Source: Candidatus Omnitrophota bacterium
GTDB lineage: Bacteria; Omnitrophota; Gorgyraeia; Zapsychrales; JANLHA01
Reading direction: 5' to 3'
Assembly: GCA_029560465.1 (NCBI GenBank)
Contig: JAKQKX010000069.1
Location: 77,021 to 141,020 of the forward strand
DNA: 64,000 nt
The first letter of the stretch is position 1. Each line of letters opens with the position of its first letter. This document shows positions 39,667 to 45,335 of this stretch, piece after piece. Both the position numbers and the translations under genes were made by a program. The notes beneath the pieces are model-generated. The model searched no databases, was not told the origin of the DNA, and worked only from the letters and a program-made list of their open reading frames with translations.

Positions 39667-41349
39667 ATGTTTAAGAAAAAAATAATCCTTTTCTTTGCGA
39701 TACTGATACTTTTTATCAGCCTGGACGCTCCGGCCTGGTGCGGGTCGTTTAAACTGCGCTGGGTCGAGGTGGACGTTGTTTTGGACGCGGATGGGAAAGC
39801 CCATGTTTCCTATGCGGTCCGCTGGTCCTGCCAGGGCGCTGATCTGCACGGTTTTTATTTTGAGGGATTTGCCGGGCGCCCCCGGTTTAATGACCTGGAC
39901 GCGCACGCTGTTGACGAGAAGGGCACGCGGTATCCTCTGGACATCACGTTCCTGTCAGACCGTAAATATGATATTGTGTTGGCGGGGGGGCAGGCTTTTC
40001 ATGACGGAGAGATTACCTACCGTTTTAATTATGAAACTGATTTACAGGAGAGCGGCCATGTCGTCTTGACTGAAAGCCAGGATGGCCGGCTGGTGGTTTT
40101 TAACTGGGCGCCGGTTCAGTGGAGCGACGCCCTAGAGCATGAAACGGTGACCGTCCATTACCCGGTTGTTATGAACACGCCTGAAGGTTCCCCCGAGGCT
40201 CTGTCAGCCGTTAACTTTTTAACCGAGAAGTATGTCAATCAGCGCTATAAGATTGATTATCCGGCGGCGACCAACGCGCAAGGGAATCCGGTGTTCACGG
40301 TCCGCTTTCACCGTGATGATTTGCCCTCACGGTATCATTTCCAGATTCAGACTTATCTCGACGCGAAATATTTTAATCTCACGACCATGGCCGCTTCCCA
40401 ACCCTGGGCGGAGACGCCCGGCTTCCGGAAGGCGGAAGAGAATTATATTTTCAACCGGTACTTCCCTGGCAGCGTCCTGGCCGTGGTGCCGCTTTCCGCC
40501 GGGGGGCTGCTGGGGCTGTTGCTGTTTGGGGGCGTTGTCCTGCTGGTTTTCCCGTTTTTTATTATGACGAGAAAGCATGTGTCCATGCTGTCGGCCCAGG
40601 ACGGGATCGCTCCGATCCGCTGGGACGGGGACGAATGGGTTCCTCCGAAAATTCAAGTGGGGTCGTTCCGGAAGGACGGAAAAATTAACAAGGATCTGAC
40701 AGCGTTGGAAGCGGGGCTTTTACTGGACATCCCTTTGGGGACATTGGCCGGCTTGATGATCCAGAATCTTGAACGTAAAGGGCTCCTGAAGATCATCAGC
40801 CATGAGCCGTTGAAGGTCGAGAGGATGTCGGCCACTGCGGGTGGGGATGATCCTTATGAAAATAATATTTTAAACGCGATCGACATGTCCGGGAATATCC
40901 CGCAGGGATTCATCAACGATCTTTTTCATGCCATGGCCGCGGGGCTTGAGCAAAAAATTTGGGACTGCGATGTGGACGCCACGAAAGCGTATTACAAACA
41001 GCGTATGGACGCCATCCTGGACCAGGAGAAACAGAACCCCCAACAGGAAACGGACACAGGATATTATTGGGATGGGTATTACCACCATTATTACGGACGG
41101 ATGTATTATCATAACCGGGATTATTACCGCCGGGGCCAGGATATCGGACGGGCGCTTGAGGTGAACGCGCCCCAGGTCAAGGAAGGGTTTTCTTCTTTCC
41201 GGAATTCCTCGCTTTGTTATGAAGGGCCGTTTTTGCAGAATGTCTGCCATGACGCGTGCCATTCTGCGTGTCATTCCGCCTGCCATTCCGCGTGTCATTC
41301 CGCCTGCCACGGGGCCTGTCATGGGGCGTGCGTGAGCAGCGGGCATTAA
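39667..41349 (+). CDS. Bitopic membrane protein (signal peptide, ~260-aa extracytoplasmic domain, TM, cytoplasmic tail) ending in a (C-H-x-A)x7 CXXX tandem repeat
   Basis: Signal peptide and single TM ([29 protein letters not shown]). Tyr/His-rich segment ([25 protein letters not shown]) and the final 33 aa [34 protein letters not shown]. The overall architecture loosely resembles DUF2207-type proteins; this is unverified. Confidence 0.7.
   Translation: [560 protein letters not shown]
41245..41328 (+). repeat. In-frame tandem repeat, 7 x 12 nt (2 x 24-nt higher-order units) encoding C-H-x-A
   Basis: TGCCATGACGCG, TGCCATTCTGCG, TGTCATTCCGCC, TGCCATTCCGCG, TGTCATTCCGCC, TGCCACGGGGCC, TGTCATGGGGCG. 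The 24-nt units at 41257-41280 and 41281-41304 differ by a single nucleotide. Confidence 0.95.
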
Positions 41350-41360
41350 CGGAGTTTGCC

Positions 41361-43651: not shown

Positions 43652-43706
43652 GGGCGCTTTCCAAGAATTTCCGGAAGCCCTTCCTTGGGTATACGTCCAA
43701 ATATTC

Positions 43707-45335
43707 ATGAAAACGTTGATTTCCGTTAACAATATCAGTAAGACATTTATCTCCCAGGCGGGGAAACATCCGCACATTAAAGCTCTGGATAATATTTCTT
43801 TGGATATTCGAGAAGGGGAAATTTTGGGGGTTTTGGGCCCGAATGGCGCGGGCAAAACGACATTTTTGAATATCCTCTCCACGTTGCTGTTACCCGACAG
43901 CGGGACGATCACGATGATGGGAAAACAACTGGTCCCCGCGCATTATTCCGAATTGCGTCAGTGTTTTAATATGTGTTCCGGGCACCCCAATTTTCCCTGG
44001 AGTTTGACCCTGGAAGAAAATTTATATTTTTACGGCCGGTTGTATAACCTTAAAGGGAGAATTTTGAAACAACGTGTGGCATCCTTGATTGACATGTTCG
44101 GCTTGGGACAGGTCGCGCGGCTTCGTTTTGACGAACTCTCCAGCGGGACCAAGCAGAAGCTGGCCCTGGCTAAGTGTTTGATCAACGAACCCAAGATTAT
44201 TTTTCTCGATGAGCCGACCGTGGGGTTTGACCCGGATGTGGCGGTTAAAATCCGCCGGCTGATTCTGGATATTTATGAGAAGACGGGTGCGACGATCCTG
44301 CTGACGACGCATTATATGCCGGAAGCGGAAAAAATGTGCCAGCGGATCGCCTTTCTGAAAGAGGGGCGTCTTATCCGGTTGGCAACGCCGGAAGAACTAA
44401 AGACACGGCAGGGCCAAAAGGATTTGGAGTCTGTTTTTATCGATTTGGCGGGCAAGATAGCAGAGACGGGCTTGGGTTCCCCACTACAGGAGGCGGGTGA
44501 TTTATTGAGCTGGCAGGAAAGCCGCCCTGCGCCGCGTTCGTTTGCCCCGGATGTGGCCAGATGGCTGAACGGCTGTTTCGCGTTTACATACCGCAACATG
44601 CTGTATGCGTTGAGGAATTTTTTTGCTTTTATGGAACTGGTGTTCTGGCCGATCGTCAGTTTGATCTCGATTGGGCTCATGGGGGATTTTTTAGAGATGG
44701 AAGAGCGCGCGTTCGCGTTTGTTATAACGGGCGCGATAACCGCGGGAATTTTACAAGTCACGCAGCTGGATGTGGCGTACAGCCTGTTGTATGAAGTGTG
44801 GGCCAAAAGTTTAAAGCACACCCTCCTGACACCGGTGGGGATCAGCGAGCATCTTTTCGGGTCCTGGGTGATCGGCATTGCCAGAGGAGTGATTATTTTT
44901 GTGATTTTGGGTTGCGCCGCCACGGTGTTTTTTGGTTTTGAATTTCCTCCTTTATTGGTGACAGGCGTTTTTCTGTTAGGGATTTTCGGCTCCGCGCTTC
45001 TTTTGGGGACGCTTGTATGTTATTTGCTGCTTTGTTTTGGGCAGAAAGCGGAGATAACCGCCTGGATGTTGGCGTATCTTTTCATGCTGATTTGCGGCAT
45101 CTATTATCCGGTAAGCACGTTGCCGAAGTTTTTTTACTATTGCGCTCAATGCGTCCCGATAACATATTTTTTAGAATATTTCCGGCAAAGTTTCGGGTTT
45201 CAGCCCGTCCTTAACTATGTGCTTTGGAAGGGGTTTGCGTTAATTGTTTTTTATCTCATTGTCGGGCTTTTTTTTATGAAACACGCTTTTATTCAGGCAC
45301 GGAAGAACGGAGTGATTGTCAAATTGTCTGAATAA
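43707..45335 (+). CDS. Fused ABC transporter: ATP-binding domain plus ABC-2-type permease domain
   Basis: Walker A GPNGAGKTT, signature LSSGTKQKLALA, Walker B IIFLDEPT, then six TM helices of an ABC-2-type permease. Confidence 0.8.
   Translation: MKTLISVNNISKTFISQAGKHPHIKALDNISLDIREGEILGVLGPNGAGKTTFLNILSTLLLPDSGTITMMGKQLVPAHYSELRQCFNMCSGHPNFPWSLTLEENLYFYGRLYNLKGRILKQRVASLIDMFGLGQVARLRFDELSSGTKQKLALAKCLINEPKIIFLDEPTVGFDPDVAVKIRRLILDIYEKTGATILLTTHYMPEAEKMCQRIAFLKEGRLIRLATPEELKTRQGQKDLESVFIDLAGKIAETGLGSPLQEAGDLLSWQESRPAPRSFAPDVARWLNGCFAFTYRNMLYALRNFFAFMELVFWPIVSLISIGLMGDFLEMEERAFAFVITGAITAGILQVTQLDVAYSLLYEVWAKSLKHTLLTPVGISEHLFGSWVIGIARGVIIFVILGCAATVFFGFEFPPLLVTGVFLLGIFGSALLLGTLVCYLLLCFGQKAEITAWMLAYLFMLICGIYYPVSTLPKFFYYCAQCVPITYFLEYFRQSFGFQPVLNYVLWKGFALIVFYLIVGLFFMKHAFIQARKNGVIVKLSE

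Follow-up and report, generated by a model that had tools for sequence, protein, structure and literature searches.

Most work on radical S-adenosylmethionine (SAM) enzymes with a SPASM domain has dealt with them as producers of small, secreted peptides; we describe a locus that couples such an enzyme with a large membrane protein's tail. On cysteine-bearing substrates these enzymes typically form sactionine or ranthionine thioethers, with PapB and NxxcB acting on repeated short motifs and QhpD making its thioethers within a protein subunit (PMC10114670). The CXXX-repeat systems, defined in silico as a TIGR04117 target and its maturase, share with our locus a cysteine at every fourth residue, in tandem, beside a radical-SAM/SPASM gene. 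Their targets are short stand-alone peptides (the TIGR04117 profile has 98 positions), whereas here the repeats form the C-terminus of a 560-aa membrane protein. The locus lies in a stretch of 64,000 nucleotides from a Candidatus Omnitrophota bacterium (assembly GCA_029560465.1, contig JAKQKX010000069.1, positions 77,021 to 141,020), which we call the window and which matches contig JASEKR010000250.1 of GCA_030153525.1. It comprises gene A, encoding the membrane protein with its Cys-His repeat tail, gene B, encoding the radical-SAM/SPASM enzyme, and gene C, encoding a second membrane protein. These form a conserved three-gene operon in which the tail and B are an obligate pair, and they look like a maturation system of the radical-SAM/SPASM kind whose substrate context is without precedent.

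The pairing rests on two scans. One genome per GTDB species was searched with an alignment of B, which gave 261 confirmed relatives, and 80 loci were analysed; a metagenome scan seeded with apparently tail-less homologues of A added 75 further loci, for a total of 155. Co-occurrence was counted where the tail-bearing open reading frame (ORF) was complete and had at least 900 nt downstream, with B required within 700 nt. The tail was followed by B in 77/77 genome and 56/56 metagenome loci (133/133 in total), so that the association which a preliminary description of this DNA had suggested from one sequence holds across genomes, and by C in 71/72 and 45/45 (116/117 in total). In the other direction, strong matches to B were preceded by a tail in 76/76 genome and 55/56 metagenome loci, the sole B without a recognised tail (L121) being a case in which a Cys-to-Ser change broke the search pattern. 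An ORF ending in (CHxA)n-C-VS.G. stands immediately upstream of B on the same strand in 77 of the 80 genome loci, and in the other three B lies about 300 nt or less from a contig end, leaving no room for A; C was found downstream of B in 79 of the 80 by tblastn. All complete A genes in the metagenome loci have a tail of 7-9 units, with B and C next wherever the contig continues. A is mostly separated from B, and B from C, by -4 to +30 nt, suggesting translational coupling, and clustering of all flanking ORFs left A, B and C as the only universally shared neighbours. Both C as a third obligate component and the spread across many phyla had been overlooked in the preliminary description.

That spread is wide. 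Among the deposited labels are Omnitrophota, Elusimicrobiota, Armatimonadota, Planctomycetota, Lentisphaerae, Kiritimatiellae, Hydrogenedentota, Sumerlaeota, Firestonebacteria, Auribacterota, Spirochaetes, Nitrospiraceae and others, more than ten phyla altogether, although such labels, taken over from the deposited metagenome-assembled genomes (MAGs), may in some cases be mistaken. The closest relatives of the window, with 93% identity in B, include L001, a MAG labelled Omnitrophota, and L042, labelled Planctomycetales. Distant relatives of A that lack the tail (L157 and L159-L162, on Treponema-like contigs) have no B or C nearby; the gene downstream of A in these contigs resembles FliG, judged by eye from the sequence. 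Three close homologues that seemed to lack the tail (P0282, P0284 and P0286) were considered as counter-examples and rejected, the metagenome scan seeded with them having returned only tail-bearing A with B and C. A loose link between A, tail and enzyme was the weak point foreseen in the preliminary description, and the homologues found retain both tail and B. The contig of P0286 (L158) ends 20 nt past its apparently tail-less A gene, and the absence of a tail there may reflect either a true truncation or an artefact of assembly or gene calling. In L022 a run of N falls within the tail (~7700-7900). The repeat region seems prone to assembly or masking trouble, and some 'tail-less' database entries may be artefacts.

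The tail itself is a precisely kept object. It consists in the window of seven CHxA units, a closing Cys and VSSGH, 34 residues in all; the preliminary description had the seven units right and the length one residue short, at 33. The underlying 12/24-nt DNA repeat is present as described but is imperfect rather than perfect: Tandem Repeats Finder (41245-41331) gives 5.4 copies with 79% matches at period 12 and 2.4 copies with 93% matches at period 24. Across 140 loci the repeat number is 7-9 in 137 of 140 tails, and the Cys, His and Ala of the repeat are near-invariant. Position x alone varies (Ser, Asp or Gly) and does so by place, Asp occurring almost only in N-terminal repeats (mainly 1-4), Ser in the centre and Gly almost only in the last two. 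In 14 loci the 34-aa tail is identical, yet it is encoded by 14 distinct DNA sequences with a mean nucleotide identity of 81% and a minimum of 71%, every difference being synonymous.

Since identical tails are encoded by DNA that differs by up to 29%, and by synonymous changes only, purifying selection on the tail acts at the protein level, and its conservation does not come from recent homogenisation of the DNA repeat. Recurrence of the same tail in 140 independent loci argues against chance, and the synonymous-only divergence, fixed copy number and position-specific x together point to a defined structure and away from a stretch of low complexity. Divergent members of the family retain the Ala-Cys pair despite altered spacing, as in CYSACHNACH. 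Four such members (P0381, P0386, P0393 and P0401) have variant tails, for example ACACHSACH, and as natural variants they could help to define the enzyme's requirements. Across deposited labels from more than ten phyla the conservation of the tail is comparable to that of an active site, which points to a core cellular function in lineages that have few cultured members and many genes without annotation.

Protein A begins with a signal-peptide-like sequence and has a single hydrophobic stretch (about residues 281-300) with TRKH behind it. These features fit a topology with the N-terminus outside and the tail in the cytoplasm, in line with the bitopic 560-aa protein that had been proposed, and the homologues are likewise single-span. 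Its predicted domains comprise a DUF2207-type beta-sandwich ectodomain (~27-232), the membrane span, a cytoplasmic winged-helix/helical domain (~340-456), an aromatic-rich linker and the tail. The AlphaFold2 model of A (predicted local distance difference test, pLDDT, 71) has the beta-sandwich, the membrane helix and a cytoplasmic winged-helix-like unit with a helical bundle. Against DUF2207 (Pfam PF09972, gathering score 24.4 bits) the N-terminal domain of the window's A scores a sub-threshold 19.1 bits; among orthologues P0123 passes with 26.8 bits, and P0131 (19.8) and P0132 (16.8) fall below. Tyr, Trp, Phe and His make up 25% of the linker ahead of the pre-repeat segment, against 15% of whole A proteins, and the pre-repeat segment is kept within lineages as F..FR.S..CY.G.F, CHSACYVHTA or CFEGCFTHSA.

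Protein B matches the Pfam models Radical_SAM (92 bits) and SPASM (36.7 bits), both above their cut-offs. In an alignment of 27 homologues the core cysteines C122-x3-C126-x2-C129 are invariant, as are eight in the SPASM part (C337, C351, C354, C369, C408, C411, C417 and C421, including CX2CX5CX3C), which substantiates the SPASM-type cluster that the preliminary description had recognised. An extra invariant C133-G-C135 lies four residues past the CX3CX2C motif (FCYAxCGC), and these cysteines could be an additional cluster ligand or a hydrogen-atom donor. The FCYAxCGC motif is fairly specific: when the genome collection was searched for the pattern, 308 matches were obtained and 261 of them were true relatives. 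Residues ~1-105 form a putative PqqD-like domain, PqqD being a recognition element (RRE) of peptides that ribosomes synthesise and that are modified after translation (RiPPs): residues 36-84 of the orthologues P0015 and P0024 (66-70% identity) score above the cut-off of Pfam PqqD. In the PDB, only CteB (5wgg), SuiB (5v1q) and 8vpo (an unnamed radical-SAM chain) match across core and SPASM domain, with low similarity (E ~1e-11). The SPASM region alone finds thioether-forming CteB best, with an anaerobic sulfatase maturase also among its matches. For the core, the top match is GDGT/macrocyclic archaeol synthase, an enzyme that modifies lipids. In predicted architecture, then, B resembles the CteB/SuiB-type peptide maturases.

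Established families were tried for B and rejected. AhbD (140 bits against a cut-off of 500), NirJ2 (133 against 500) and NirJ (115.5 against 515) fall far short, as do the radical-SAM enzyme of the ACGX-repeat system (TIGR04340, 99.8 against 400) and the Hxs enzymes HxsC4 (110 against 500) and HxsC (73 against 268); the repeat, moreover, has Ala and not Ser two residues after His. GeoRSP and PqqE also appear among the best NCBIfam matches, neither near its cut-off, and membership of the PqqE and mycofactocin families fails on scores far below cut-offs or outside the top 25. The CXXX-repeat peptide maturase, the family evoked in the preliminary description, is not the home of B either, its model lying outside the 25 best NCBIfam matches and hence below 73 bits. 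No anaerobic sulfatase maturase model is in the top 25, the corresponding PDB match (E 5e-8) covers the core only, no sulfatase gene is among the conserved neighbours, and the C/S-x-P/A-x-R motif does not occur in the tail. PADLOC, searched for a defence system, gave as its sole match a generic viperin core (B residues 118-276) and none for A or C. In the NCBIfam search B thus reaches no family with an unrelated known substrate, and the system is, as had been suspected, undescribed in the curated NCBIfam, Pfam and PADLOC models and in the literature that we searched.

Protein C has no family match in Pfam, NCBIfam or PADLOC. Its AlphaFold2 model is confident (pLDDT 88) and contains four membrane helices and, at the C-terminus, an alpha/beta domain whose fold resembles that of type-III-secretion chaperones and YbjN. 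Since the N-terminus is positively charged and the helices are even in number, both soluble parts are expected to be cytoplasmic.

Taken together, the data make it probable, on balance, that B installs cross-links in the cytoplasmic tail of A and that the product stays on A, a reading whose parts differ in strength. That the tail is the substrate of B is very likely, because pairing is obligate in both directions, B and C are absent beside tail-less relatives, and B appears to carry an RRE; the cytoplasmic topology predicted for the tail also matches, and the tight gene junctions leave no room for a small substrate gene. Retention of the modified tail on A is likely, given that no protease or exporter is conserved across the 155 loci and that the tail barely varies. 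That the chemistry is thioether formation, proposed by analogy, is a real but tentative possibility.

In the mechanism that we propose, A would hold its ectodomain outside the cell and present its 7-9 Cys-His-x-Ala copies at the cytoplasmic end. B, in the cytoplasm, would dock through its PqqD-like RRE on the segment just ahead of the repeats (F..FR.S..CY.G.F in the lineage of the window) and, with its radical-SAM and auxiliary Fe-S clusters, would modify the repeats processively, one cross-link per repeat. Each cross-link would be an intramolecular thioether from the Cys sulfur to a backbone or side-chain carbon. C, anchored in the same membrane, would hold the disordered aromatic-rich linker or the tail of A for B, a chaperone role that its model suggests. 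The modified tail would be neither cut nor exported and would form a rigid, His-lined module, probably metal- or redox-active, with a housekeeping role; metal binding by the tail is here something we infer. The picture in full, a ladder of seven to nine radical-SAM cross-links (or metal/redox sites) kept for life on the tail of A, serving at the membrane a housekeeping role such as the sensing of metals or redox state or the handling of electrons, and provided with its own membrane-anchored chaperone, is tentative, and we offer it as a possibility.

Several observations weigh against this reading. The thioether is an argument by analogy; the single variable position x offers no obvious fixed acceptor residue, and the strict conservation of His is unaccounted for by a thioether alone. 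The best NCBIfam matches of B are the tetrapyrrole enzymes AhbD and NirJ2, slightly above the peptide maturases (~110 bits), although all are far below their cut-offs, and the N-terminus of the window's own B (111 aa) has no Pfam PqqD match by itself. The fold match of C is moderate, with at most 13% sequence identity to its fold matches, and AlphaFold2 confidence for the tail of A is below 40. Nearly all loci come from MAGs or metagenome contigs and are known from sequence alone.

The alternative that survives best, although we consider it rather unlikely, is that B modifies the tail in another way: by His-to-C-beta carbon-carbon cyclophanes across His-x-Ala, which would leave Cys free for metal, by Cys oxidation as in anaerobic sulfatase maturases, by epimerisation, or by a direct Cys-His cross-link. 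Near-invariant Cys, His and Ala around a variable x fit an aromatic-x-acceptor triplet as well as a Cys-centred motif, and an anaerobic sulfatase maturase is among the PDB matches of the SPASM domain. Radical-SAM epimerases are known to use a cysteine as hydrogen-atom donor, and B has its extra invariant CGC pair beside the radical-SAM cluster. RiPP-type radical-SAM/SPASM enzymes, too, form C-C and C-O bonds besides C-S bonds (PMC10114670). Set against this, the nearest SPASM match is a thioether-forming enzyme, the 25 best NCBIfam matches contain no cyclophane-forming or sulfatase-maturing model, and the divergent tails keep Ala-Cys while the spacing of His shifts, making Cys the most conserved element.

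It is improbable that the tail is no substrate at all and is instead an unmodified Cys/His metal- or Fe-S-binding element that would bring B to the membrane, supply it or regulate it there, with B acting on a lipid, a tetrapyrrole or another compound. The idea draws on the top curated matches AhbD and NirJ, which act on tetrapyrroles, on the lipid-modifying enzyme that heads the PDB matches of the core, on NifU-like (26 loci) and NifS-like (20 loci) genes directly downstream of C, and on consecutive repeats that, read by eye, give CX3CH, a variant heme-binding motif. Against it, the tetrapyrrole and lipid matches cover mainly the generic radical-SAM core at scores far below cut-offs (140 against 500 bits), the putative RRE domain implies peptide binding, the NifU/NifS linkage is limited to one lineage, and no tetrapyrrole or lipid genes are among the conserved neighbours. 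Ordinary metal-binding His/Cys tails, furthermore, vary freely in length and sequence, unlike the tail of A, which is fixed in both. Least probable, and by our estimate very unlikely, is a classical RiPP pathway in which the tail as core is cut from A as a giant leader and exported: the architecture of RRE, radical SAM and SPASM is typical of RiPP clusters, and in the window an ABC transporter gene that could serve for export follows C with no terminator-like site between, but this gene is confined to L001 and L042, the closest relatives, neither a protease nor an exporter is conserved in the 155 loci, the tail is almost invariant across phyla where RiPP cores are variable, and the part serving as 'leader' would be 520 aa of conserved membrane protein that has folded domains of its own.

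The positions of the cassette and of the features next to it in the window are collected in Table 1.

Table 1. The A-B-C cassette and adjoining features, with positions in the window.
Feature	Position	Strand	Basis and remarks
Gene A	39667..41349	+	ORF, 560 aa; type-I membrane protein with Cys-His repeat tail
(CHxA)7-C-VSSGH tail of A	41245..41346	+	residues 527-560, 34 aa; sequence and repeat analysis
Gene B	41361..42692	+	ORF, 443 aa counted from the ATG after GGAG; radical-SAM/SPASM enzyme
Gene C	42689..43651	+	ORF, 320 aa; four predicted transmembrane helices
Fused ABC ATPase/ABC-2 permease	43707..45335	+	ORF; 55 nt after C
Sigma-70-like promoter, TGGACA / 17-nt spacer / TATAAT	39607..39635	+	11/12 consensus positions; ~30 nt upstream of A

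The gene junctions are as the preliminary description had drawn them: the stop codon of A (TAA, 41347-41349) is followed by the Shine-Dalgarno sequence GGAG (41351-41354) and, 11 nt after the stop, by the start codon of B; the stop of B and the start of C share an ATGA (42689-42692), and the fused ABC gene comes next. The promoter call upstream of A is a consensus match only. Inspection of the window sequence found no convincing terminator-like site from A to the end of the ABC gene, and an Rfam search of the window gave no structured RNA at gathering thresholds. A 45-aa ORF between the divergent genes (39520-39657, + strand), annotated in the NCBI record (L156, 1159-1296), sits in the AT-rich promoter region and for that reason is probably spurious.

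Genes around the cassette do not belong to it. The ABC ATPase/permease is DrrA-like (218 bits, below the cut-off); as a system member it was rejected, a high-identity (87%) match occurring only in L001 and L042, and from these comparisons it is a local addition outside the cassette. With it falls the maturase-plus-exporter layout typical of RiPP loci that had been read from the window. A divergent block (34760-39488, - strand) encodes a B12-binding radical-SAM protein, an APH-family kinase and a protein of 592 aa that has multiple spans and ends in TPR repeats. The first of these has a probable start at 39464 and HpnJ as its best match (122 bits, far below cut-off); a link to the system had been hinted at, and it was dismissed in view of high identity only in L001, L042 and L002. 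Downstream (45448-47499, + strand), a 214-aa membrane protein without a Pfam match is followed by an SPFH/Band-7 (flotillin-like) protein of 464 aa whose long C-terminus is rich in Ala, Glu and Lys; the pair has its own strong sigma-70-like promoter at 45409-45437. The TPR/PMT-like, APH-kinase, NfeD-like and flotillin genes were likewise rejected as members, with high identity only in L001 and L042 and, for some, also L002. Further on (47570-49498, - strand), a 642-aa fusion joins a class-I SAM methyltransferase to a D-Ala-D-Ala-ligase-type ATP-grasp domain, an unusual architecture.

The NifU-like and NifS-like genes stand on the same strand as C, mostly ~100-200 nt past it, in loci nearly all labelled Elusimicrobia (L014, 2641-4690; also L016-L044, L067 and L144). 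Being confined to this one lineage they were not counted as system members. The linkage could reflect a co-transcribed Fe-S supply for B, or a tail tied to Fe-S handling.

If the proposed chemistry is correct, membrane-protein tails would be a new class of substrate for radical-SAM maturases, and the tail may hold a new protein-derived cofactor or metal site. It would also offer a first clue to the function of one subfamily of the DUF2207 proteins, which are widespread, and a joint annotation for three families of hypothetical proteins. Should the retained ladder prove true, RiPP-type machinery would have been turned, in groups that are largely uncultured (labelled Omnitrophota, Elusimicrobiota, Armatimonadota, PVC group and others), to building a permanent functional part of a large membrane protein.

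Known systems share single features with the cassette. Typical DUF2207 proteins, for example SMU.243 of S. mutans, have a beta-sandwich ectodomain and a membrane span like those predicted for A, but their genes pair with LemA, and the DUF2207 papers that we found, on stress tolerance in S. mutans and on an unrelated ovothiol neighbourhood, report no radical-SAM partner. Literature searches combining DUF2207 with radical SAM, and searches for ACGX, for the CXXX repeat and for SPASM with Elusimicrobia, returned no papers; radical SAM with RiPP and Omnitrophota gave only generic gene-cluster surveys. On the enzyme side, CteB (the SCIFF maturase), PapB (freyrasin, with repeated CxxxD) and NxxcB share with B a radical-SAM core and a full SPASM domain in ~450 aa, and their N-terminal RRE has a putative counterpart in B. 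The substrates of sactipeptide and ranthipeptide maturases are, like the tail, Cys-rich and repetitive; they are leader-core peptides, however, which the tail of A is not, and our cassette has no conserved protease or exporter and a tail strictly conserved across phyla.

The small soluble subunit QhpC is exported together with its dehydrogenase partners. Its enzyme QhpD is the precedent for a radical-SAM/SPASM protein that puts several intra-protein Cys thioethers into a lasting functional subunit (PMC10114670). Our locus differs in having no Qhp genes, in the membrane location of A and in the restriction of the motif to a tail. The two repeat systems resemble the cassette in other respects. 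The tail unit x-Ala-Cys-His is similar to the Ala-Cys-Gly-x unit that gives the ACGX system its name, and two tail variants match TIGR04117 weakly (15.0 and 16.7 bits against a cut-off of 50), so that the family link to CXXX repeats suggested in the preliminary description fails for the tail as it did for B. Judged from its sequences, the A-B-C cassette appears to work like the CXXX and ACGX systems without being a member of either, and it is set apart from both by its obligate third, membrane-embedded component.

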